The position numbers and the translations under genes were made by a program. Source: Candidatus Hydrogenedens sp. (lineage in GTDB: Bacteria; Hydrogenedentota; Hydrogenedentia; Hydrogenedentales; Hydrogenedentaceae). From it: 64,000 bases of DNA. Numbering within the stretch: position 1 is the first letter of the stretch; each line of letters opens with the position of its first letter. Where the stretch lies: contig JBMFRC010000003.1 in the NCBI GenBank assembly GCA_049968235.1, forward strand, positions 192,001-256,000, written 5' to 3'. The notes beneath the pieces are model-generated. The model worked only from the letters and a program-made list of their open reading frames with translations, made no database searches and had not been told where the DNA came from. Positions 1,579 through 39,512 of this stretch are shown here, one piece after another.

Positions 1579-4401
1579 GTGTCAAGTATCTCAGGAGACA
1601 TACCTTCGTATATTGGTGCGTATCGCATAGATGAGCGAATCGCTGAAGGTGGTTTTGGTGTTGTGTATCGTGGTTTTGACCCGCGTTTGAAGCGGGAAGT
1701 TGCTATTAAGGTGCTTCATCCTCAGCATTCCTCTGAACCGGGGCGTGTATCTCGCTTCCTTCGTGAAGCACAAAGTGCGGCGCGACTGAACTATCCGGGT
1801 ATTGTCCAGATTTATGATATTGTTGAGGAAAATCAGCGATTGGCATTGGTGATGGAGTATGTTCATGGAAAAAATTTAGACCGATTTATTCGGGATAATC
1901 CGAGCCTATCCCTTGTCGAACGAATTGATATTGGAGTGCAGATAGCAGAAGCGTTATATTTAGCCCATCAGGCAGAGATTGTTCATCGGGATGTGAAGCC
2001 AGCGAATATACTTGTAGATGAGAATGGAGTTGTTAAGCTAACGGATTTCAATCTTGCTCGACTGAGAGATACATCATTAACCCCGCTAACAGGTGAACAT
2101 AATGTGTTGGGGACACCTGCGTATATGTCCCCGGAACAATGTTTGGGAAAGGAAGCATCTCCACAATCGGATATCTATTCTTTAGGTGTTGTCTTGTATT
2201 TTCTATTTACAGGAACATTACCTTTTGAGGCGGAAAATTATCTCGCCTTAATGAGGCAACATACCGATACTCCACCGACACCTGTCCGATTAATTAATCC
2301 TGACCTGCCTGTATCTCTTGAAAAACTTATTTCGCAATGTCTTTTAAAAAATCCGGAAGGAAGACCTGCTTCAGCCAAAGAAGTAGCAGAGCGTCTTCGC
2401 GAAATCAAAAATGAGTTGATAAAAAAAGAATCCGGTGAAATGCCTATTCTGGAACAAAAGACAATGATATTGTCGGACACACCGACACCTATAACACCGG
2501 AATATACCCTTCAAACCAAAGAGACAGCACAGGGATACCCTATAACGCCTACGGACAGTCAAAAAATACAATATCAATCACCCAGTCCAATACCATCACC
2601 ATCAACTCCCCAGGATTTTAGAACCCCCACAGGAACAATTCCGTCCCCGCTCTCTTCAGGAGCACATATTCCGTATGAAGTTAGTGGTGGAACTGTAAAC
2701 ACTACTCCTATGGGAATGCCGATGCAATTATCTCCTTCTGCCTCCACAAGCACGCCTATTCCCACCAATCCGACGAACATAGGAACTCCTTATACACCTA
2801 TACCGACCCCTTTCCCATATGAAATAGCACCAATTCCTTCGCAACATTCAAATTTTAAAATAAATTTCTTTATCCTGATACTTCTTCTCATTTCGCTAAT
2901 TTCTCTATGTTTAAGTGGATTCATCGTATATACCTATTACCATAATGGAGCCCTTCCGGGAAAAGGAACTACTTTAACATCAGAAACACATCAAGTTGTG
3001 CCCAAAACGGAGCCTGTGGACTATTCGAGGGTATTGTCGAATTTTATAAAAGAATATGATAATAATTACAAGTTTGAAGTAATTGAAGAAAAACAGGGCA
3101 ATGGCTATAAAGCATATATTCTTGATTTTACCTCGCAGAGTTGGCATCCCGAAAAGACAGCCCCCCCTGTATGGAGGCATTGGCTAACTGTAATTGTGCC
3201 CCAACAACGGGTAAAAGATGTCGGGATGCTTATCCTCACAAATGGTTTTTCGACATTAGAAACGCCTATGAGTGAAATCCCCCCCTATTTCATTTCGCTT
3301 GCAGTATCCTCAAAGTCTGTGGTATCCGTTCTGGAAGGTTTTCCACGGGATAATGTAGGAATTTACAAAACTCCAACACAAATCGTTCATTTAGAACCTG
3401 CTGAATTTGCCAGTTGGAGTTTCAAGCAATATTTTGAAACACACGAGACCAGTTGGATTGTTTTTTGTCCATTGGTCAAATCAATTGTTCGAGCCATGGA
3501 CGCTGTTCAGGAGTTATTGTTGAAAAATTTGCGTTCAGAAATACCCTTAAAAGAGTTTGTTCTATGTTCCGAAACACCTTTCTTCGTATCATGGTTGGTT
3601 CCACCGGTAGACAATCGTGTAATTGGGCTGGTTTCCATAAATACGACAGGTTTTCATCTGGAACAACAAATCAAACGTATGTTCATGGATGAAGTAGAAC
3701 TTCCGAAATTCTTTGCGGAGATAGATGATGCCGGGTTATTTCCCTTATTAGAAACGGAAGACGGAGAAAATTTATTAAAGATAATAGACCCGTATTATTA
3801 TCGAGAAGTATTAAAGATTCCGAAACTCATCATTTCTATGAACAATAATCAATGGCAGGATATGATTTTTCTTTCGGAGCAGGTTCTCTCCGAAATACCG
3901 GAACCTGTTAACTGGTTGGTTTGCCCGCAATTGCAATTATCACGCGAATATGCTTTCTTACCTCAGCAAACATTTTATAACTTCACAACATCATCCAATA
4001 CCAATCTCCGTGTATATGATTTTAAGGATACAATACAGGTATTTTATCAGCGGTTATTAGGACAAAAAAATATGCCTATTTTCCAATGGGATTTTTCCGC
4101 GAAGGGAGATTGTTATATTCGAGTGAGTGAAGAAATTATAGAGTGCCGTTTATGGTATTGTAGTAGCGATAGAAGAGGAACTCTACTTCAGTCCCAGAAC
4201 AAAAACTGGAAATATAAAATACTTTCTGAATCCGCAGAAGGGATTTATCGGTTCACAATACCTATCCAGCCCCAGCAATATACTGCGGTATTTGCAGAAG
4301 TCATTTTTCCCAGTTTAATGGGTATTCATTTCCCACTAACTACCGATATTCATATTATCCCACCTCAAAAAACGGAGGAAACTAACAGTATAAATCCATA
4401 A
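1579..4401 (+). CDS. Transmembrane Ser/Thr protein kinase with an extracytoplasmic PqaA-like (PhoPQ-activated pathogenicity-related family) domain that appears degenerate
   Basis: The N-terminus has Hanks kinase motifs: GGFGVVY, AIK, HRDVKPANIL, DFNLA and GTPAYMSPE. A Pro/Thr/Ser-rich linker follows, then one TM helix (FFILILLLISLISLCLSGFIVY). The ~470-aa C-terminal domain aligns to the 35037-36518 protein (TSQSW..W.HWLT..VP, K.[IV]VRAMD.VQE), but the GASKRGW segment is replaced by CSETPFF. GTG start. Confidence 0.85.
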   Translation: MSSISGDIPSYIGAYRIDERIAEGGFGVVYRGFDPRLKREVAIKVLHPQHSSEPGRVSRFLREAQSAARLNYPGIVQIYDIVEENQRLALVMEYVHGKNLDRFIRDNPSLSLVERIDIGVQIAEALYLAHQAEIVHRDVKPANILVDENGVVKLTDFNLARLRDTSLTPLTGEHNVLGTPAYMSPEQCLGKEASPQSDIYSLGVVLYFLFTGTLPFEAENYLALMRQHTDTPPTPVRLINPDLPVSLEKLISQCLLKNPEGRPASAKEVAERLREIKNELIKKESGEMPILEQKTMILSDTPTPITPEYTLQTKETAQGYPITPTDSQKIQYQSPSPIPSPSTPQDFRTPTGTIPSPLSSGAHIPYEVSGGTVNTTPMGMPMQLSPSASTSTPIPTNPTNIGTPYTPIPTPFPYEIAPIPSQHSNFKINFFILILLLISLISLCLSGFIVYTYYHNGALPGKGTTLTSETHQVVPKTEPVDYSRVLSNFIKEYDNNYKFEVIEEKQGNGYKAYILDFTSQSWHPEKTAPPVWRHWLTVIVPQQRVKDVGMLILTNGFSTLETPMSEIPPYFISLAVSSKSVVSVLEGFPRDNVGIYKTPTQIVHLEPAEFASWSFKQYFETHETSWIVFCPLVKSIVRAMDAVQELLLKNLRSEIPLKEFVLCSETPFFVSWLVPPVDNRVIGLVSINTTGFHLEQQIKRMFMDEVELPKFFAEIDDAGLFPLLETEDGENLLKIIDPYYYREVLKIPKLIISMNNNQWQDMIFLSEQVLSEIPEPVNWLVCPQLQLSREYAFLPQQTFYNFTTSSNTNLRVYDFKDTIQVFYQRLLGQKNMPIFQWDFSAKGDCYIRVSEEIIECRLWYCSSDRRGTLLQSQNKNWKYKILSESAEGIYRFTIPIQPQQYTAVFAEVIFPSLMGIHFPLTTDIHIIPPQKTEETNSINP

Positions 4402-25762: not shown

Positions 25763-28063
25763 ATGACCATGCGAGGATATTTTATCCCTTTAATTTTTCT
25801 CTTATCCTTTACAGCAATTCTTCCTTCTTTTGCAGGCGAGAAAATTAAATATCAATTAACAATTAAGAGAGTTGGTGATGAAGGGATTGTAAATCCTGGA
25901 ATTGGGACTTTCTACTATGATGCAGGGACCACTGTTTTTCTCAACGCTATTCCGACTGCAGACTGGGCATTTGACCACTGGGAAGGTGCTGTTTCAGGGA
26001 CAGACTTATTTACTCAAGTGCTGATGGACAAACCAAGGACAGTTACCGCTGTTTTTGTACCAGCACAATGGAGGCTGACCATTGAGCATAGTGGGAATGC
26101 TACCGGTACAACTTTCCCTGCTCCCGGGGTCTATGGATTTTTAGATGGTAGAACGGTAGGAGTTAGCTCTGGCACTTCGCCGGGTGTATATTTTGGAGGC
26201 TGGAGGGGTGATGTGATAAGTAATGAAGAATTTGTACAGGTGGTTATGAATTCTGACAAATATATAAATGCACGATTCACGGATACAGGGTATACCCTTA
26301 GTATAAGTGTAATTGGTCCGGGAGGAACAACCCCCTGGCAAGGGACAGTGCATCGGTATTCAGAAGGATTATCTATATCTGTTGTATCTTATTCAACAAA
26401 TCCTTTATGGCGGTTTGACCATTGGGAAGGTGATATAGGCGATAACGAATCACGATATTATATCCTGTTGCAACTAACTATGGACCAGGACCGAAATATC
26501 ACCGCGGTATTCATTGAGAAGCCATATTATAACCTTACATTGGAAATCGTTGGCGAAGGAGGTGTTTCTTTTCAACAGGGCTTTGATGACCCCGTAACTC
26601 TATCCACAGGTATCCATGAATTTAGCATTATTGAGTGGACCTATATTCGATGTGAAAAAATAATCACTTCACCCACATGGAAATTTCTCCACTGGGAAGG
26701 AGATTTTGGTGATACATTGCCTACCTATTATCGATGTGCTTTCTCTATGGACAAAAACCGTTATGTCCGTTGCATTTTTACCAATTTGACACAGGTCCCT
26801 GATGTTATAGGAACACCTCAAAATATCGCAGAAACGACCATTATAAATGGAGATTTGATAGTCGGTAACATTACAGAAATATGTAATGATAATTATGTAT
26901 CAGGATATGTAATAGACCAATATCCACCTGCAGGGACTACTGTAGAAATAGGAAATTCTGTATCACTCTGGGTTTCCACAGGACCTTGTCCTGTATCAGT
27001 GCCAAATCTTATCGGATTAACCATAGAAGAGGCAGAGAATGCAATAAATAGTGCCGGCTTAACGCTGGGTAATGTGATGAACTCGTGTAATGATGAAATT
27101 GGGATGGGAATAGTATTTGGTCAAAATCCATTAGCGGGAGAGCAATTATTCCCCGGTAGTTCTGTAAATATTGAGGTATCTTCAGGACCCTGCCCGGCGG
27201 AAGGGATTATAGAAGGTGAAGGGATGGAGGAAGGTATGCCCGAAGGAGAAGGGACACCCGAAGGAGAGGTATGCGTCTGGATGGGAGCTTGTCCTAACTT
27301 TAGTTATGAAGGAATAAAAATGGGATATTTTGTCGGACAATTATGGAATAACTGCGATATTAATCAATCCGAAATCCCCGATGCATGGGAGATAGAAATT
27401 GTTAAGTATTTGCTGTGCAATCCTCAGGGAATATGGGAGGATAAATTTATTTGTAAATTTATTGAAAATTATAATATTCTGGCAACGGAGTCTTTATTCC
27501 ATACAACTTATTATTCCTTCCGGCATATTTTAACAGGACTTCTTACTATAGGAACCAATATGGATATTTTAAGAAACACTTTCTTTCTAACCAAAAACTA
27601 TTATCCATTTGAATATCCATCGGATAATTTCCCGTTATTGCCGGATGCGGATATTGATAATGATGAATTAACTAATTATGAGGAATACCTCAGGGTAGTC
27701 GAACTTAACGGAAGTAACAATGCATTTATTCGGAACATTTTCAATCCTTCGCCTGTTCCTCCCATTCACTCCGCAGATATAAATCAGAACCATAGAATAG
27801 AGTTGACAGAACTACTTCGCATTATTCAATTCTTTAATTCTTCAGGATTCCACTGTGAAAATGGGACAGAAGATGGTTATGCGCCGGGTTATGACGAGAG
27901 TTTCGATTTTTCATGTGAACAACACACGGCGGATTATTTGCCCCACGATTGGCATATTAGCCTTGAAGAAATTCTAAGGATGGTTCAGTTTTTCAACGCA
28001 GATGGCTATCAGATGTGTCCCTTTATTTCTGAAGATAGTTACTGTCCTATTTTCTCTGAGTAA
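25763..28063 (+). CDS. Secreted multi-repeat protein: four InlB B-repeat-like domains, two PASTA-like domains, an acidic Gly/Glu/Pro linker and a degenerate dockerin-like C-terminus
   Basis: Signal peptide. Repeats of Y.LT....G.G...P..G...Y..G..V.L.A.P...W.F.HWEGD...AVF. Two V.N.IG.T..EA...G...G.....S..P.AG domains each end in SxGPCP. DINQNHRIELTELLRIIQFFN resembles a dockerin. Confidence 0.55.
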   Translation: MTMRGYFIPLIFLLSFTAILPSFAGEKIKYQLTIKRVGDEGIVNPGIGTFYYDAGTTVFLNAIPTADWAFDHWEGAVSGTDLFTQVLMDKPRTVTAVFVPAQWRLTIEHSGNATGTTFPAPGVYGFLDGRTVGVSSGTSPGVYFGGWRGDVISNEEFVQVVMNSDKYINARFTDTGYTLSISVIGPGGTTPWQGTVHRYSEGLSISVVSYSTNPLWRFDHWEGDIGDNESRYYILLQLTMDQDRNITAVFIEKPYYNLTLEIVGEGGVSFQQGFDDPVTLSTGIHEFSIIEWTYIRCEKIITSPTWKFLHWEGDFGDTLPTYYRCAFSMDKNRYVRCIFTNLTQVPDVIGTPQNIAETTIINGDLIVGNITEICNDNYVSGYVIDQYPPAGTTVEIGNSVSLWVSTGPCPVSVPNLIGLTIEEAENAINSAGLTLGNVMNSCNDEIGMGIVFGQNPLAGEQLFPGSSVNIEVSSGPCPAEGIIEGEGMEEGMPEGEGTPEGEVCVWMGACPNFSYEGIKMGYFVGQLWNNCDINQSEIPDAWEIEIVKYLLCNPQGIWEDKFICKFIENYNILATESLFHTTYYSFRHILTGLLTIGTNMDILRNTFFLTKNYYPFEYPSDNFPLLPDADIDNDELTNYEEYLRVVELNGSNNAFIRNIFNPSPVPPIHSADINQNHRIELTELLRIIQFFNSSGFHCENGTEDGYAPGYDESFDFSCEQHTADYLPHDWHISLEEILRMVQFFNADGYQMCPFISEDSYCPIFSE

Positions 28064-31768: not shown

Positions 31769-31793
31769 CAGAAGATTTATTGATTATTTAACG

Positions 31794-31833
31794 ACAGGAC
31801 CCGATGTTGAACAGCATTGGGTCCTGTTTTGTG
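31794..31833 (+). terminator. Rho-independent terminator (9-bp GC-rich stem plus T-run) after the oxidoreductase gene
   Basis: acaggaccc-gatgttgaacagcatt-gggtcctgt followed by tttgtgtt. Confidence 0.6.
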
Positions 31834-31844
31834 TTCGGGGTAGA

Positions 31845-33050
31845 TTATTCATAGCGCAGGGCTTCAACGGGGTCAACACTTGCCGCTTTCAAAGCAGGAT
31901 ATACACCGGAGATAACACCGACAGCAGAACTGAAAAGGAAAGCAGTCATTACAGACCATAAGGATAGACCTATAGGTAAGTTGGGGTAAAGGGCACGGAT
32001 AATGGCGGAACCCATAAAACCGAGAAAGATACCGGTCATCCCACCGAGAACACTAAGGGTGATGGATTCAACGAGAAATTGCAAACCAATATCGGTACGG
32101 GTGGCTCCTACTGCCATACGAATACCCACTTCACGTGTGCGTTCCCGCACGGATACTAACATAATATTCATAATTCCAATGCCACCTACCAGTAGCGATA
32201 TGCATGCGATACCTACTAACATAAGTCGAAGCATACTGAAAATTCGTGAGAAAGCGGAAAGCATACTATCTTGATTTGTAATGGTAAAATCTTCTTCGTT
32301 ATCGTGAGCAGAACGGACGATTTTTCGTGCTGATTCTGTAGCACGGGGAATATCTTCCTGTGTGCGTGCACCTATAAGAATTTCCATGACTTCTTCGACA
32401 TTAAAAATGCGTTGTGCACTGGGTAGAGGGATAATAACAATATCTCCGAGGTCAATCCCCAATGCCATTCCGCGTTCTTCTAAGATGCCCACAACGGTAT
32501 GTTTTGAACCGTTGATTGAAATTTTTTCATACAAAGCACGGTGTGTTCCGAACAATTCTTTTTTTACAGTTGTTCCGATGATGCAGACACGGCTATTGCG
32601 TTCAATATCTTCTTCCGTGAGGAAACGACCTATTTGTGTGTATAATTGGCGAACTTTCTCAAAGTCCGGGGTTGTGCCGATAAGTAAAACATTCCGCTGA
32701 CGATTTTTATATCGGATATTGGCTAATCCTAATGTGTTGGAAGCCACACCGATGATACCGGGGACTTTCCGTTTTACCTGTCGGGCAATTTCATAAGTAA
32801 GTTTTTTGTGACTTCCCGCACTGATGGGAAACATACCTGTTGTTTCTTGTTTACCGGGGGTAATAATGATGACATTGCTACCCATAATGGCGAATTCCCG
32901 TTCTACATAGGCTTGTGCAGACTCTCCTAAGGCAATTAACAATATTACAGACATAACCCCAATGATTACCCCTAATGCGGTCAATGCGGCACGCATTTTG
33001 TTCTGATTCAGTGCAATGATAGCGGATCGTATAAGTTCCCAGAAAGACAT
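31845..33050 (-). CDS. ABC transporter permease, MacB/FtsX family
   Basis: N-terminal TM, a MacB-like periplasmic domain, then 3 C-terminal FtsX helices. Confidence 0.85.
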   Translation of the reverse strand: MSFWELIRSAIIALNQNKMRAALTALGVIIGVMSVILLIALGESAQAYVEREFAIMGSNVIIITPGKQETTGMFPISAGSHKKLTYEIARQVKRKVPGIIGVASNTLGLANIRYKNRQRNVLLIGTTPDFEKVRQLYTQIGRFLTEEDIERNSRVCIIGTTVKKELFGTHRALYEKISINGSKHTVVGILEERGMALGIDLGDIVIIPLPSAQRIFNVEEVMEILIGARTQEDIPRATESARKIVRSAHDNEEDFTITNQDSMLSAFSRIFSMLRLMLVGIACISLLVGGIGIMNIMLVSVRERTREVGIRMAVGATRTDIGLQFLVESITLSVLGGMTGIFLGFMGSAIIRALYPNLPIGLSLWSVMTAFLFSSAVGVISGVYPALKAASVDPVEALRYE

Positions 33051-33055
33051 TACGA

Positions 33056-34303
33056 TTACTCTCCAAGTGAGGGAACGATTTTGATTCTAACTCCGTCTGT
33101 CAATCCTTTAATTCCAACGGAAGTAATTATGGTATCGCCTTCTTTCAATCCTTCCACAATTTCACGTGTTTCCCAGTTCCCGATACCTAAAGTTACCGGT
33201 TTACGAACAGCACGGTCTCCTACTACCACATAAGCAAATTCATCGCGGATAAGGCTTTCACTTGGGACATAAAGGACATTATCTTTTTCAGATACGATTA
33301 CCGTTACATCCGCAGACATTCCTGCAAGGAAATTGCCCTGTTCCAGAAATCGAACCTTTACTGTAAAGGTTCGAGTAAATTCCTTTGTAATGGTAATTAC
33401 TGGGGATATTTCAAATATTTCACCCATAAAAACCTGTCCCGGGAAGGCGTCTAATTCAATCCTTGTCTTTTGGTTCAATGAGATTTGTCCTGCATTGGCT
33501 TCGTCAAAAGGTGCTTCAATGTATAGGTCAGAATTGTCAAGCAGATACATTAGAGGCACGCCGATAGCAATACCTTCTCCTTCATGCACATTGATGGTGG
33601 CAACAACCCCATCGAAGGGTGCTTTAATAATGGCTTTATCTCTAATGGCTCTGGCTGAATTTAAAGCAGATTCCGCCTGTATGATGGCGGTTTCTCCCGC
33701 TTTTACTTCTTGTTCACGAACTTGTAGTTCTTTTACACTCGTGAGGGCAGATTGGTATGCCTCTTTTGCCACCTTGTAAGCCAGTTCCACTTTTTCCTGT
33801 TCTCCTGGTGAGAGAATTCCCTGTTCACGAAGTTTTTTAGCACGTTCTAAATCCGATTCCGCTTGCTTTAATTGTGCTTGCGTTTGATTGATTTGTGATT
33901 CAGAAAGATTTTTAGCCACCTCATAACCGACGCGTGCTTGTTCCAGTCGTGTCTTTGCAACGAGCAGGTTTGCTTCAGAAAGGGCTACCTGTGCGTCAAG
34001 GTCTTCATGGCTTAATTCAATAAGAATTTCATCTCTGGCAACATGTTGTCCTTCCTTTACATGAACCTTAGAGATGATACCCATCATTCCGCTTGCAATC
34101 ATCGAGCGACGATGTGCCATAATTGTTCCGGAAGCGAAAGCGGAAACCGTTTGCTGGACCTTCCCCTTCTTTACAGTATCTACGGTAACCTGTATTGGCG
34201 ATGTGTAGAAAAAGAAATAATGAACTATACCTGCTACGATTAAAGCGAGAATGAATAAGAAGATTAATCGGATTAGGTAATTTTTGTAATTTACTTTTGC
34301 CAT
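33056..34303 (-). CDS. HlyD/MacA-type periplasmic adaptor (membrane fusion protein)
   Basis: N-terminal TM, biotinyl-lipoyl-like domain, long coiled coil and a beta-barrel domain. Its start overlaps the upstream ATPase gene. Confidence 0.8.
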   Translation of the reverse strand: MAKVNYKNYLIRLIFLFILALIVAGIVHYFFFYTSPIQVTVDTVKKGKVQQTVSAFASGTIMAHRRSMIASGMMGIISKVHVKEGQHVARDEILIELSHEDLDAQVALSEANLLVAKTRLEQARVGYEVAKNLSESQINQTQAQLKQAESDLERAKKLREQGILSPGEQEKVELAYKVAKEAYQSALTSVKELQVREQEVKAGETAIIQAESALNSARAIRDKAIIKAPFDGVVATINVHEGEGIAIGVPLMYLLDNSDLYIEAPFDEANAGQISLNQKTRIELDAFPGQVFMGEIFEISPVITITKEFTRTFTVKVRFLEQGNFLAGMSADVTVIVSEKDNVLYVPSESLIRDEFAYVVVGDRAVRKPVTLGIGNWETREIVEGLKEGDTIITSVGIKGLTDGVRIKIVPSLGE

Positions 34304-34989
34304 TCGTCTGATATTACCTTTCCATCTCTGAAGTGAATAATTCGTTGGGCACGAGACGCTACATCTTTTTCATGTGTAACCATGACAATAGTATGTCCTT
34401 TGCTATGTAATTCATCAAATAATTCAAGGATACTTTCCCCGCTTGCTGTGTCCAGATTTCCTGTGGGTTCATCTGCTAATATTGTGGAAGGATTGTTTAT
34501 CAGTGCCCGTGCAATAGCCACGCGTTGTCGCTGACCTCCGGAAAGTTCGTTGGGTCTGTGATACATACGGTCTCCAAGCCCAACGGCGATTAATGCCTCT
34601 TGAGCCCGTTGCCTTCGTTCTTTTCGTGGAACACGGTCATATATGAGAGGTAATTCCACATTTTCTAACGCAGTAGCACGACTTAATAGGTTAAAATTTT
34701 GAAAAACAAAACCTATCTCATGATTTCGCAGTTCTGCAAGTCGCATTTCAGAAAATTTATGAACCTCTTCACCTTTATACCAATAGGAGCCTGCGGTAGG
34801 TCTGCTAAGACATCCTAAAATATCAAGGAAAGTTGTTTTCCCTGAGCCGGAAGGACCCATAATTGCAACATAAGACCCCGCATCAATTGTCAAATCAACA
34901 CAGTTTAAGGCTATAACTCTATTGTCACCGACTTCATAAACCTTTTCAAGATTTTGCACATAAATTAATCGAGACAAACTTTCGCTCAC
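34291..34989 (-). CDS. ABC transporter ATP-binding protein (MacB/LolD type)
   Basis: Walker A GPSGSGKTT, signature LSGGQRQRVAIARAL, Walker B ILADEPTGNLD. Confidence 0.9.
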   Translation of the reverse strand: MSESLSRLIYVQNLEKVYEVGDNRVIALNCVDLTIDAGSYVAIMGPSGSGKTTFLDILGCLSRPTAGSYWYKGEEVHKFSEMRLAELRNHEIGFVFQNFNLLSRATALENVELPLIYDRVPRKERRQRAQEALIAVGLGDRMYHRPNELSGGQRQRVAIARALINNPSTILADEPTGNLDTASGESILELFDELHSKGHTIVMVTHEKDVASRAQRIIHFRDGKVISDEWQK

Positions 34990-35036: not shown

Positions 35037-36518
35037 TTATTTGTTTAAAAATCCTTTGGGTAACTCAGCAGGTGGCTCATATTTATAAGGTTCAATATCG
35101 GGAACTATGCGAACAGGTGTTGTAAAGGTGAAAGTGGTATTATCCGGTCCGGGAAAACTCATTTCAATAAGGTATGCTTTCCATCCTTTTTCCGGAGGAT
35201 TTACTTTCCCAACATAGACGCCTTTTTCTTGCTCCGTTAGTTCCTTTGCCTGATAGGCTTTGCCAAGAACATTTAAACGGAAGTCCCGTGCTTCTGGATT
35301 GGTGGCTTCCCATAAAGTAACTTTACCGGGTTTATCTTTTGTCCTGACTACAATAGTACAATCATCTGGAAATTCCCAGGAATATTGCGGAAGAGGTTTT
35401 TTCATAACAATAGCCTTGTAGAATGCAGATACACTGCTGACAACTTCTGGTTTAAGTCCATGACCTGTATTCGGCACATATCGGATATATGTAGGTGCAG
35501 GTAGGTCTGCAAGATAAAATTTCCATGAATCTGGCAGGAAAAATTCATCACCTGCGGAATTAATGATGAATTTGGGCATGGTTAGTCTATTAAGGTAACT
35601 ATACGGGTCAACAATCTTCAACATGGCTGAAAATTCAGGAGTGGTTAACCAGTCCATAATATTCATTTCTACATAATCATCTATTGCGGGAGCCCAACCT
35701 CCATATACCGCATAGTGATGTTTAAATGAGGGGACTAAATTTAGTAAATCAATAACCATGGGTACACATGCCACTACTCGTTTATCTACGATAGTAGTTG
35801 TCCATGTGGTCCAGCCGCGTTTGGAAGCACCTGCTACTACAAATTCATTTACTTTCACTTTTCCGCCTTCTTTACTTGCACAAAATTCCTGCACGGTATC
35901 CATAGCCCGAACGACCGCTTTTGTCATCGGCATACGTGTTAACCATTCCGCTTCTCCTGTTTTCAAATATTTATCCCAATTATATGCGATAATAGCGTCT
36001 TCGCTACGCTTTCTGTCGTTATCATTTGCAAAGACCAGAGGTTGATTCGGTATTTGCTTTATTTCCGCCACTACAGTTTGCACATCTTTGGCTATTGTTC
36101 GTAATAAGGGACTAGAAGATGTCGGCGGTTCATCACTATTTCCCCCACCGGAAATAATAAGTAATGCGGATGAATACTTCACCTTTTTAGGAACAACAAT
36201 TGTTAGCCAGTGTGTCCAGATGGGACGGTCAACTTCTTCAGGAGAACGCCAACTCTGGGAAGTGAGATGAATGTAATAAATAGTGAATTTGTCCGCTTGT
36301 TCTGTTTTTACAAGTTTATAACTGTAATTGGGGTCAGGTTTATAAACATAGGTATCCAGGGGGCCCGGATTTTTTGTTTCTCGGGCATTTGTAGAAGCAA
36401 TAACCTTTTGTGATTCTGATATAGGTGCTTTTGTCGCACAGCCAATAACAGAAGTAACAAGCAAGATAGACAGTAATATGGACAATAATTTCTTACTATT
36501 TAAAATCCGTTGTATCAT
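35037..36518 (-). CDS. PqaA-family (PhoPQ-activated pathogenicity-related protein, PF10142-like) lipoprotein; paralogue of the kinase ectodomain
   Basis: Lipobox VIGC. Conserved LTSQSWRSPEEVDRPIWTHWLTIVVP, GASKRGW (G-x-S-x-x-G nucleophile-elbow-like) and KAVVRAMDTVQE. It aligns along its length with residues ~490-900 of the 1579-4401 product. Confidence 0.6.
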   Translation of the reverse strand: MIQRILNSKKLLSILLSILLVTSVIGCATKAPISESQKVIASTNARETKNPGPLDTYVYKPDPNYSYKLVKTEQADKFTIYYIHLTSQSWRSPEEVDRPIWTHWLTIVVPKKVKYSSALLIISGGGNSDEPPTSSSPLLRTIAKDVQTVVAEIKQIPNQPLVFANDNDRKRSEDAIIAYNWDKYLKTGEAEWLTRMPMTKAVVRAMDTVQEFCASKEGGKVKVNEFVVAGASKRGWTTWTTTIVDKRVVACVPMVIDLLNLVPSFKHHYAVYGGWAPAIDDYVEMNIMDWLTTPEFSAMLKIVDPYSYLNRLTMPKFIINSAGDEFFLPDSWKFYLADLPAPTYIRYVPNTGHGLKPEVVSSVSAFYKAIVMKKPLPQYSWEFPDDCTIVVRTKDKPGKVTLWEATNPEARDFRLNVLGKAYQAKELTEQEKGVYVGKVNPPEKGWKAYLIEMSFPGPDNTTFTFTTPVRIVPDIEPYKYEPPAELPKGFLNK

Positions 36519-36617: not shown

Positions 36618-36649
36618 ATATAGCCGATACAATTTTGTATCGGCTATAT
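36618..36649 (-). terminator. Perfect 13-bp palindrome hairpin downstream of the DUF1573 gene
   Basis: atatagccgatacaa-tt-ttgtatcggctatat. On the minus strand it is followed by tgcttttag. Confidence 0.4.
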
Positions 36650-36675: not shown

Positions 36676-38046
36676 TTATTTTTGTGTTTGAGCCGGTTCT
36701 TGCTGAGGAGGTGTAGTTGGTTTGGGTAACTGGTCTTTGGGTGGAATTTTAATAGAGGTTGGGGGCAGTTTGTGTGGCATGTTGGGTCCCTGTTGCGGAT
36801 TCGGTTTTATCTCGCCACCCATAACATTCCGGGGTCTTGTGCTAAAATTCGGAATATCAATTACACGGAAAGGAATTTTAACTTCAGGTTTTGTTGTAGA
36901 TGTTGTCTTTACAATAATTTCTTTGTCTTTCAAAGAATTGTCCATAGGGATATTCTTAACAAGTAACAGATAGTCACCGGCACTGCGTTCTGTTACTTCG
37001 ACCTGAATATCGGGGGTGGGAGGAATAACTTCGACAATCTTTAATCCTTTCTCTTTACCTTCTTTGATACGTAAATATTGTTGCGTTTTGGCTTGAGGGT
37101 CTTCCTTATTTACTCGATAACTAATGACTTCTGGCGATACATCTATGGCACCGAGAAATCTACCATACATGGAAACATTGATATTCCTTAACGATGTTAT
37201 CGATGGGTCATTTACATCTTTACCGGGAATTGTAGCATCTGTCTGGATAGTGAAAGTTTTGGATAATGTAATGCCGGGTTCCACTTTCTCTATCTGTTTA
37301 ATTCTTATTTTGTAATATTTACCGGGTTCTACGGTTTCTACTTCTGCCTTGAATTGAGGCAAATTACTCATATCCACATTTGTAATGTTGAAAGTCAAAT
37401 CGGGGAGATTGGATTTCACTTCCACAATTTTTTCTTCTACAAAATCCTCTATAATGGAATAACCCAAATTGACGGTCCGTGGTTCTATAATAATGGGTGC
37501 CGAAGCAATACCTTTCAGGGTTAATGTTAATACAGGAGTTTCCGGGTCATTGGATTCAACGGTTATATTTTTTGTCTGGGGTCCCTGGCGATTTGCAAGA
37601 GTAAGGGTTGCTTTAATCTTTGTAGATTCTCCGGGTTGAAGTTCTTTCTTTTCTGGTTGGGCGACGGTGCACCCGCAGGTCGTTTTTACTTTGTCAATTA
37701 GCAGTAATCCATCACCTGCATTTTTAACGACGAATTCGTGTTCCACCTTTTCATCGTTCCTTTTTTCACCGAAATCAAATTCTGGTTCATCGCATACGAT
37801 TTTAGGTTTTCCCCCTGCTGTAGCGGAAGGGACCGCTTTTTGTTCTGCAGGTTGAGCAAGTGCCTTTTCTGCAGGAGGCGGTGTCGATGGTTTCTCTACT
37901 TTCTCTGTATCGGTTGCGGTTTTCCCTGCCTGCTGAGCAGGTGCCGGAGTAGATGGCTCTGACTTTTGTCCACCACAGGAATTGAGAATCACAATTAATG
38001 TTAGTACGAATACAAGACCCAGAAAAACTTTCATACCCTTACTCAT
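36676..38046 (-). CDS. DUF1573 domain protein with Pro/Ala-rich N- and C-terminal low-complexity regions
   Basis: Signal peptide. The conserved DUF1573 core ...FDFGEKRNDEKVEHEFVVKNAGDGLLLIDKVKTTCGCTVAQ... contains the TCGCT motif. Confidence 0.65.
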   Translation of the reverse strand: MSKGMKVFLGLVFVLTLIVILNSCGGQKSEPSTPAPAQQAGKTATDTEKVEKPSTPPPAEKALAQPAEQKAVPSATAGGKPKIVCDEPEFDFGEKRNDEKVEHEFVVKNAGDGLLLIDKVKTTCGCTVAQPEKKELQPGESTKIKATLTLANRQGPQTKNITVESNDPETPVLTLTLKGIASAPIIIEPRTVNLGYSIIEDFVEEKIVEVKSNLPDLTFNITNVDMSNLPQFKAEVETVEPGKYYKIRIKQIEKVEPGITLSKTFTIQTDATIPGKDVNDPSITSLRNINVSMYGRFLGAIDVSPEVISYRVNKEDPQAKTQQYLRIKEGKEKGLKIVEVIPPTPDIQVEVTERSAGDYLLLVKNIPMDNSLKDKEIIVKTTSTTKPEVKIPFRVIDIPNFSTRPRNVMGGEIKPNPQQGPNMPHKLPPTSIKIPPKDQLPKPTTPPQQEPAQTQK

Positions 38047-38228: not shown

Positions 38229-39512
38229 ATGAATATAGTAAATTTTTTAATGTGTTTGTTTTTTGTTTCTTTGGCAGGAAATGAGCCAGATAAAGTAGAT
38301 TTTATTTTAAGTAAACATACAACGATATCCCCTTCAGGTGCTTTTTGCTGGTTTCAAGATCCACGGGCTATTTATTTAGCAGGACAGCATCGACGAACTT
38401 ATGTTGGCTGGATTTCCTCTCAGGGTAAGTTGGAAATAGGCTATTATGACCATGACACAGATGAAGTTAATACAAAAACAATAAAAGAATTCTGGGATAT
38501 CGATGACCATAATGTCCTATCTTTGCTTGTATTACCTGATTTGCGTCTTATGATTTTCTATGCCCGGCATAATAAAGAAAATCTTTATGCACGCCAGAGC
38601 CTCAAACCCGAAGACATAACGACATGGGGAGATGAGATTGTGGTGGCGAAAATGGCGAAAGTAACATATAGTCATCCTGTATTTCTGCATAGCGAAAATT
38701 GTTTCTATGTTTTTTGGCGGGGAGAAACATGGAAACCTACTTTTGCTGTTTCTGAAGATAGTGTCCATTGGTCAGAACCTAAGGTCCTCTTTCAGGATAA
38801 AGGGAAGGAATCGGAGAATGTGCGTCCTTACTTGAAAGTGGTATCGGATGGTAAAAGAAGAATTGACTTTGCGTTTACAGATGGACATCCGAGAAATGAG
38901 CCGTTTAATTCGGTATATTATGCCCGTTATGAATCGGGAAAATTTTATCGTGCAGATGGGACAGTAATAGGTTCTATGGATACCCTTCCCATATTGCATT
39001 CTAATTGTGATAAGGTATATGACGCAAAAGTAACAGGTGTGCGGGCATGGGTCTGGGATATTGCCTTGACCACGGAAGGGAACCCTGTAATTGCTTATAC
39101 ACGATTACCGGAAGAAGACACACATTTTTATCATTATGCCTTATGGGACGGGAAGCAATGGATTGACCATGAAATTACCTTCGCTGGTCCCTGGTTTCCC
39201 GAAACACCCAAAGGTAAACAAGAGCCGGAACCTCATTATTCTGCGGGTATTTGTATCAACCATGCAAATACCGCAGAAGTTTATTTATCTCGACGGGTAA
39301 ATGCTACTTTTGAGATTGAACGATGGATAACTTCGGATAAGGGCAAATCATGGAACTATATCTCTATTACAAAGAATTCGACAGTTATTAATGTTCGTCC
39401 TATCGTCCCATGGGGGTATAATAAAGAGAAGGGGCATGTCATCTGGATGCGTGGGCATTATACCCATTACACTCAGTTTCAGACATCTGTTCAATGCTGG
39501 ATTGAACAATAA
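38229..39512 (+). CDS. BNR/Asp-box repeat protein, a putative secreted glycoside hydrolase (BNR_4-like)
   Basis: Asp-box motifs VSEDSVHW and TSDKGKSW. Signal peptide. Beta-propeller-like repeat pattern. Confidence 0.45.
   Translation: MNIVNFLMCLFFVSLAGNEPDKVDFILSKHTTISPSGAFCWFQDPRAIYLAGQHRRTYVGWISSQGKLEIGYYDHDTDEVNTKTIKEFWDIDDHNVLSLLVLPDLRLMIFYARHNKENLYARQSLKPEDITTWGDEIVVAKMAKVTYSHPVFLHSENCFYVFWRGETWKPTFAVSEDSVHWSEPKVLFQDKGKESENVRPYLKVVSDGKRRIDFAFTDGHPRNEPFNSVYYARYESGKFYRADGTVIGSMDTLPILHSNCDKVYDAKVTGVRAWVWDIALTTEGNPVIAYTRLPEEDTHFYHYALWDGKQWIDHEITFAGPWFPETPKGKQEPEPHYSAGICINHANTAEVYLSRRVNATFEIERWITSDKGKSWNYISITKNSTVINVRPIVPWGYNKEKGHVIWMRGHYTHYTQFQTSVQCWIEQ

Follow-up and report, generated by a model that had tools for sequence, protein, structure and literature searches.

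Domain organisation of the kinase

We analysed a 64,000-nucleotide stretch of DNA (hereafter the window), corresponding to positions 192,001 to 256,000 of contig JBMFRC010000003.1 (267 kb) of a Candidatus Hydrogenedens sp. metagenome-assembled genome (MAG). The window has a G+C content of 38.9%, and its open reading frame (ORF) at 1579..4401 (+) starts with GTG and encodes a 940-residue putative receptor Ser/Thr kinase (NCBI MGC8737706.1) whose ectodomain belongs to the PqaA family. From the N to the C terminus this protein is composed of five parts: a Hanks-type kinase domain, a linker rich in Pro, Thr and Ser, a transmembrane (TM) helix, an ectodomain matching Pfam family PF10142 and a C-terminal beta-sandwich (Table 1). 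The region of residues 281–425 (145 residues), which covers the linker, consists of 19% Pro, 16% Thr and 12% Ser, giving 47% for the three together. Because the kinase domain must be cytoplasmic and the protein contains a single TM segment, residues 455–940 are expected to be periplasmic. The ORF, the Pfam matches and the hydropathy scan bear out the layout proposed in a first-pass annotation of the window, namely a 940-residue kinase with a Pro/Thr-rich linker, one TM helix and an extracytoplasmic domain.

Table 1. Features of the kinase gene and of the standalone pqaA locus, in window coordinates.
Feature	Position (strand)	Kinase residues	Basis
Hanks-type kinase domain	1621..2382 (+)	15–268	Pfam PF00069 and motif table
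Pro/Thr/Ser-rich linker, low complexity, cytoplasmic side	2419..2844 (+)	281–422	Composition; fastest-evolving part
Sole transmembrane segment	2845..2940 (+)	423–454	Kyte-Doolittle scan, peak 2.94, nothing else above threshold
PF10142 (PhoPQ_related/MEROPS S82) alpha/beta-hydrolase ectodomain, predicted to be catalytically degenerate	3034..4170 (+)	486–864	Pfam, AlphaFold2 (AF2), Foldseek
Degenerate oxyanion-hole motif T-N-G-F (family, G-G-G-x)	3241..3252 (+)	554–557	Alignment column table
Degenerate nucleophile elbow L-C-S-E-T-P-F-F (versus V-A-G-A-S-K-R-G-W)	3562..3585 (+)	662–669	Alignments
Clade-specific segment P-Q-L-Q-L-S-R-E-Y-A-F-L-P-Q-Q... instead of the catalytic His loop (PNxxH)	3925..4014 (+)	783–812	Alignments; low-confidence model loop
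C-terminal all-beta (sandwich-like) subdomain	4081..4359 (+)	about 835–927	DSSP strands in both AF2 models; BLASTP alignment
Standalone PqaA-family protein, 493 residues, with G-A-S231-K-R-G, D323 and H352 intact	35037..36518 (-)		Pfam, alignment, AF2
ABC ATPase, 47 bp downstream of pqaA on the same strand	34291..34989 (-)		PF00005
HlyD-family membrane-fusion protein	33056..34303 (-)		PF16576/PF13437
MacB-type permease (MacB_PCD and FtsX)	31845..33050 (-)		PF12704, PF02687
Perfect hairpin, 14-bp stem, upstream of pqaA, parting it from the DUF1573 gene	36618..36649
Perfect hairpin, 16-bp stem, at the end of the pqaA-ABC-membrane-fusion-permease unit	31793..31828

Homology and predicted fold of the ectodomain

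The kinase ectodomain matches PF10142 with an E value of 2.9e-43 (148.4 bits against a cut-off of 20.3), and the standalone PqaA protein encoded in the same window matches this family end to end (E 4e-131; 437.5 bits against the same cut-off of 20.3). In a BLASTP alignment of 466 columns the two proteins are 25% identical (E 2e-43); as judged from this alignment, their homology is far beyond chance. The blocks TSQSW..W.HWLT..VP, K..VRAMD.VQE and IDPY.Y, on which the first-pass annotation based its block-by-block comparison with the 493-residue lipoprotein, are present in both sequences and fall on columns that are at least 90% conserved across the family. The C-terminal beta subdomain is also common to both proteins.

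A solved PF10142 structure was not found by sequence search of the PDB (best E 0.11), and the fold was analysed in AF2 models. The model of the ectodomain has a predicted local distance difference test score (pLDDT) of 82.3 and a predicted template modelling score (pTM) of 0.85; the corresponding values for the standalone PqaA are 93.2 and 0.88. The order of secondary structure elements is the same in both models. Foldseek comparison with the PDB returned CE7 acetyl xylan esterases as best matches for the ectodomain (E 5e-11) and for the standalone protein (E 1e-12), and these enzymes, which include cephalosporin C deacetylases (e.g., TM0077, PDB 3m83), are the nearest solved folds for both. 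At 11–15% identity and query template modelling scores of 0.4–0.45, the likeness is one of fold only. The models thus confirm a predicted alpha/beta-hydrolase fold in both proteins. Besides the termini, the ectodomain was modelled with low confidence in one stretch only, model residues 329–356 (residues 783–810 of the protein), which coincides with the segment standing in for the His loop.

Loss of catalytic residues

Triad status was judged from alignments, and residue conservation was tabulated over 97 aligned standalone homologues, numbered according to the standalone protein of the window. G229, S231, K232 and H352 are conserved in 100% of these homologues, and R233, G234 and D323 in 99%. 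At the G-x-S-K-R-G motif the kinase copy reads S664-E-T666-P667-F668 with a one-residue deletion, placing Thr666 at the position of the nucleophilic Ser; the replacement of G-A-S-K-R-G by CSETPFF, pointed out in the first-pass annotation, is reproduced by the alignment. The column of D323, the Asp of the family motif G-D-x-[FY], is occupied by N757, and the column of H352, the His of the PNxxH loop, has no counterpart in the kinase. Residues 750–837 contain no His at all, and the loss of this residue is therefore independent of how the loop is aligned. D759, two residues off the Asp column, was paired with D323 by BLASTP and is missing in the orthologues P0279–P0286. The oxyanion-type motif, which follows the third core strand, is SGGG in the standalone protein versus TNGF in the kinase copy, in which N555 takes the place of a Gly found in 95% of the family. 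Further family invariants, all kept by the standalone PqaA, are replaced in the kinase: Q158-P159 by D-N, E172-D173 by P-A, and likewise Y281, D329, Y334 and D411-F-R413.

Related kinases show corresponding losses. Among 24 full-length fused proteins (described below), the His loop is missing and the one-residue elbow deletion is present in all 24, and the nucleophilic Ser is missing in 23, with P0295 retaining G-S-S-T-G. The elbow of the window protein belongs to a subgroup with the pattern C-[SGA]-[DE]-[TA]-P-F-F; a second, less degenerate subgroup has T-G-E-A-N-G-W. In the orthologue P0001 the Ser, Asp and His positions are occupied by A, P and V. Because every catalytic feature of PF10142/S82 has been lost (nucleophile, acid, His and oxyanion-hole motif), we class the kinase ectodomain as a non-peptidase homologue and predict it to be a pseudoenzyme. 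The triad is thus not intact in the ectodomain (Thr666, N757 and no His), and the triad losses, the PF10142 matches and the predicted fold together support the core of the first-pass annotation, which had described a dead sensor module drawn from an enzyme family and carried by an intact receptor kinase.

Kinase domain

The PF00069 match of the kinase domain (residues 15–268) has an E value of 1.2e-53 and a score of 182.6 bits against a cut-off of 31.7. The Gly-rich loop GGFGVVY, K44, E63, D138 of the HRD motif, N143 and D156 of the DFG motif are all present, and neither these elements nor the SPE motif vary among the 24 full-length clade members. The DFG motif of the window kinase reads DFN (N158; codons 156–158, window 2044–2052). 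In kinases the Asp of this motif, not the Gly, is the catalytic residue. The description of an intact Hanks catalytic domain therefore stands as far as the catalytic residues are concerned, but not for the DFG glycine. Among NCBIfam families, Stk1/PknB is matched best; the score of 312 bits lies under the family cut-off because PASTA domains are absent. Based on the residues listed above, we infer that the kinase is active.

The fused proteins form a separate and constrained clade

We built a profile from five kinase-linked ectodomains and clustered the results of the search at 90% identity. This survey of the kinase-PqaA architecture, suggested in the first-pass annotation, identified 24 clusters of full-length proteins combining Pkinase with PF10142 (861–959 residues), which fall in one monophyletic clade. 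Fused proteins score at least 564 bits against the profile versus 335 bits for the best standalone PqaA. A "nearly unique" architecture, as suggested by a single-sequence word-indexed search, was rejected: that search was insensitive, returning three fragmentary fused relatives and missing the query's own entry, and the near-uniqueness is a sensitivity artefact given the 24 clusters found by the profile. A full-length phmmer search against 1.84 billion representatives was dominated by multi-kinase proteins, only P0110, P0111, P0113 and P0067 being informative; P0111 (918 residues) and P0113 (1199 residues) are from the exhaustive search. A scan of GTDB genomes located the fused kinase in two species, which is an underestimate because the scan patterns were specific to the subgroup of the window protein.

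The source names of the fused proteins are Candidatus Hydrogenedens or Hydrogenedentes, plus one "Nitrospiraceae bacterium" and one "bacterium". The protein with the former label, P0291, lies within a clade otherwise restricted to Hydrogenedentota, and a binning error or horizontal transfer is possible. JGI names two of the fused proteins [quoted passage not shown]. In the MAG SKW61 the orthologous kinase gene is split over two contig ends (L002 1–1296, JAOAHN010000039; L003 6603–8201, JAOAHN010000090), and the encoded N-terminal half, P0067, shares an identical overlap of 47 residues with the C-terminal half, P0001. The NCBI names of these halves, "protein kinase, partial" and [quoted passage not shown], result from this split.

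A neighbour-joining tree of 125 ectodomain and PqaA sequences (25 fused and 100 standalone) was rooted at its midpoint. All 25 fused ectodomains group in a single clade free of standalone proteins, and the midpoint root parts this clade from the 100 standalone sequences. The standalone PqaA of the window ranks only 19th among the 100 in closeness to the kinase ectodomain. The fusion is therefore old and does not stem from a recent duplication of its neighbour. The first-pass annotation had called the ectodomain paralogous to the protein 31 kb away; any special relationship implied by this is not borne out, as the two are distant members of the same family.

Nonsynonymous divergence (dN) was calculated between the window kinase and a 77%-identical orthologue in L001; because synonymous sites are saturated, we used only the relative dN values. 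These amount to 0.046 for the kinase domain, 0.079 for the hydrolase-fold part, 0.115 for the whole ectodomain and 0.32 for the linker. By this measure the dead domain clearly appears to be constrained and under purifying selection. The ectodomain of ~480 residues is strongly conserved over homologues of 35–87% identity. The fused ectodomains keep 37 family-conserved, mostly structural positions, including TSQSW, W.HWL, K..VRAMD, DPY.YR and PK, and have 17 near-invariant positions of their own, including H523, P529-P530, E586-G587, D591, which stands where the family has an invariant Gln, and the L-S-R-E..F-L-P-Q-Q segment. The positions kept and gained therefore point to a new function rather than decay.

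Gene neighbourhoods

On either side of the kinase gene lie a divergent gene for an ARMT1-like phosphatase and a convergent metH. Beside the kinase gene of L001 or of the MAG SKW61 there is no counterpart to any of the other 47 ORFs of the window, and the window's kinase-flanking genes were not seen at the kinase loci of three further genomes. Exclusively in the lineage of SKW61 and P0286, a PP2C phosphatase gene lies 3.7–4 kb downstream of the fused kinase (L002 5036–5974; L009 14896–15837), and its product is a plausible cognate phosphatase. This lineage also has a 713-residue Glug-motif protein encoded upstream of the kinase and a DUF6600 protein downstream. The PP2C arrangement is missing from the window and from L001, and there is no PP2C or FHA gene among the window's 49 ORFs. 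At 25763–28063 (+) the window encodes a 766-residue protein in which two PASTA domains are combined with an InlB B-repeat domain (Flg_new_2) but with neither a kinase nor a penicillin-binding domain. Since PASTA domains usually occur joined to PknB-type kinases or penicillin-binding proteins, it is curious that a free-standing PASTA protein is encoded in the window that also carries this unusual receptor kinase.

The standalone PqaA begins with MIQRILNSKKLLSILLSILLVTSVIGC, which looks like a signal peptide with a lipobox-like VIGC: on reading of the sequence, a hydrophobic segment (residues 8–33) contains V-I-G-C26, to be compared with the lipobox [LVI][ASTVI][GAS]C. Downstream of pqaA lie genes matching PF00005, PF16576/PF13437 and PF12704/PF02687; these are the ATPase, membrane-fusion protein and MacB/FtsX permease genes of a MacAB-type exporter, in agreement with the first-pass annotation. 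No TolC-family gene turned up among the annotated ORFs of the window. The 47-bp gap between pqaA and the ABC ATPase gene contains no terminator-like site. The two hairpins of Table 1 are likely terminators of neighbouring genes, and with one at either end the pqaA-ABC-membrane-fusion-permease block is defined as one transcription unit, in which pqaA appears to be co-transcribed with the three exporter genes. We considered a PqaA-MacAB link as a rule across the family and rejected it, since a MacB-type neighbour occurs at only one of three other informative standalone pqaA loci (P0006, beside MacB-type and ABC genes); P0003 loci were left out of this count because their contigs are too short. 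Directly upstream of the pqaA operon, a gene at 36676–38046 (-) encodes a protein that combines a DUF1573/HYDIN-like Ig domain with a long tail rich in Pro, and divergent from it lies a gene for a BNR_4 repeat protein (38229–39512, +).

Proposed function and alternative explanations

We consider it probable that the protein is a single-pass receptor kinase whose PqaA/AprA-family pseudoenzyme ectodomain has been kept as a periplasmic sensor. The dead hydrolase domain would bind a periplasmic ligand or partner without turnover, and the ligand would most plausibly be peptide-like and related to the ancestral substrate. Occupancy would be signalled via the single TM helix as the receptor changes its oligomeric state or its orientation, and the changed association would lead to trans-autophosphorylation and in turn to phosphorylation of cytoplasmic substrates. 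The long, disordered Pro/Thr/Ser-rich linker and the TM helix would tether the active cytoplasmic kinase to the periplasmic domain. Ligand-driven receptor association is an accepted mode of action for other receptor kinases of bacteria, among them PknB and PknD. More tentatively, and with a good deal less likelihood, the dead S82 domain may be a periplasmic receptor that has kept its recognition of the natural, peptide-like substrate on which the active PqaA/AprA hydrolases work.

Several points weigh against the sensor reading. Neither a ligand nor a partner or substrate emerged from our analysis of sequences and structure models; clade members do not share conserved gene neighbourhoods, and context therefore says nothing about function; and with synonymous differences saturated (pS about 0.7) dN/dS is only rough. 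Also, Thr666 could in principle act as a nucleophile, and 23 of the 24 clade members have N or S in place of the DFG glycine, canonical DFG being found only in P0288, an unusual deviation that leaves some doubt over kinase activity. The main rival to the sensor reading is a structural role of the dead PqaA domain, which would dimerise the kinase constitutively, localise it or serve as a scaffold, e.g., by anchoring the kinase at an envelope site or by holding a permanent periplasmic partner. Such a role would agree with the lack of a known ligand and with the mostly structural nature of the retained family-conserved residues; the clade motifs EGFPRD and LSRE..FLPQQ lie partly in the low-confidence predicted loop, which would fit a protein-protein interface. 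However, large folded ectodomains of receptor kinases, such as those of PknB and PknD, generally serve signal input, and strong conservation over ~480 residues argues for a specific binding function, yet cannot separate a scaffold from a sensor. On balance we regard the scaffold as possible but doubtful.

The first-pass annotation had instead suggested that the kinase ectodomain and the standalone PqaA, beside its MacAB-type exporter, may respond as a pair to one and the same envelope-active ligand. In such a functional pair with the PqaA-MacAB operon, the kinase would sense whatever is removed by the enzyme and the exporter. The two loci lie 31 kb apart in the same genome and encode members of the same family, pqaA is apparently co-transcribed with the exporter genes, and the standalone homologue P0006 has a similar setting. 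However, 18 other family members are at least as close to the ectodomain as the standalone protein of the window, the family-invariant residues around the catalytic site (Q158, E172-D173, Y281, D329 and Y334) are replaced in the kinase copy, other genomes show no synteny between kinase and pqaA, and the MacB-type neighbour is missing at two of the three other standalone loci; the pairing is not borne out, and we judge it improbable. Residual catalysis of a non-canonical kind, with Thr666 as nucleophile or at a new site formed by H523, E586 and D591, could be suspected from the Thr at the Ser position in both the window protein and L001, from D759 near the Asp column and from the invariant polar residues specific to the clade. 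Against this, most of the clade, including the 86–87% identical P0110, has Ala at the position of Thr666; P0279–P0286 lack D759, and no His is available in 750–837; the elbow combines a deletion with bulky Pro-Phe-Phe, and the oxyanion motif is degraded. A pseudokinase, which would make the whole protein a non-catalytic scaffold, is suggested by the DFN/DFS motifs, but the replaced Gly is not the catalytic residue, K44, E63, D138, N143, D156, GGFGVVY and SPE are invariant across the clade, and no other part of the protein is as strongly constrained as the kinase domain (dN 0.046). Both of these readings are unlikely, and we give either one very little credence.

Relation to known systems

PF10142 corresponds to MEROPS peptidase family S82, which is barely characterised (PMC11878206), and its eukaryotic member AprA has a reported DPPIV-like protease activity (PMC8326840). 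The kinase ectodomain shares with PqaA/AprA proteins the alpha/beta-hydrolase core, the C-terminal beta-sandwich and the 37 family-conserved positions. It differs from them in the absence of the Ser, Asp, His, GGG, Q158, E172-D173, Y281, D329 and Y334, in the elbow deletion and the insertion at the His loop, and in its fusion to a kinase, the family otherwise consisting of secreted proteins or lipoproteins. The S82/PqaA family spans from Salmonella PqaA to the Dictyostelium chalone AprA, which has a signalling role in amoebae. If substrate recognition has been retained, the kinase clade would act as a substrate trap revealing what the PqaA/AprA family acts on, and it would provide the first bacterial S82-family protein in signalling instead of catalysis, in parallel to AprA. 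To our knowledge, bacterial receptor Ser/Thr kinases are numerous and ligands are known for very few of their ectodomain types; Hydrogenedentota is, as far as we know, a candidate phylum without cultured genetics. Intact S82 homologues are reported to have a peptidase-like activity; as a natural binding-only version tethered to a kinase, the dead copy could help to identify the ligand of the family.

Within the literature library that we searched there was no publication on kinase-PqaA fusions, and the literature on PqaA is very thin. The novelty claimed in the first-pass annotation therefore holds with respect to published descriptions, but the architecture has been annotated automatically in databases and is not unique to this genome. 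On sequence grounds, the clade represents a clearly defined new ectodomain type for bacterial receptor kinases, mainly of Hydrogenedentota, and would be a clean example of enzyme-to-receptor conversion in bacteria. It overturns no concept, as dead alpha/beta-hydrolase receptors and enzyme-derived kinase ectodomains are already known. Neuroligins and plant GID1 use alpha/beta-hydrolase folds as non-catalytic receptor or adhesion modules; they are similar to the kinase ectodomain in that a hydrolase fold with part of the triad lost is reused for binding in signalling, and different in being eukaryotic, in belonging to cholinesterase-like or hormone-sensitive-lipase-like families and in having no covalently attached kinase. 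Compared with Hanks receptor kinases of the PknB/Stk1 PASTA, PknD beta-propeller and FGE-sulfatase types, the fused clade has the same succession of N-terminal kinase, Pro/Thr-rich linker, single TM segment and C-terminal ectodomain, and is distinguished by the S82 pseudo-hydrolase ectodomain and DFN/DFS. Another enzyme-type kinase ectodomain is present in P0125, which combines Pkinase with PEGA and FGE-sulfatase domains.

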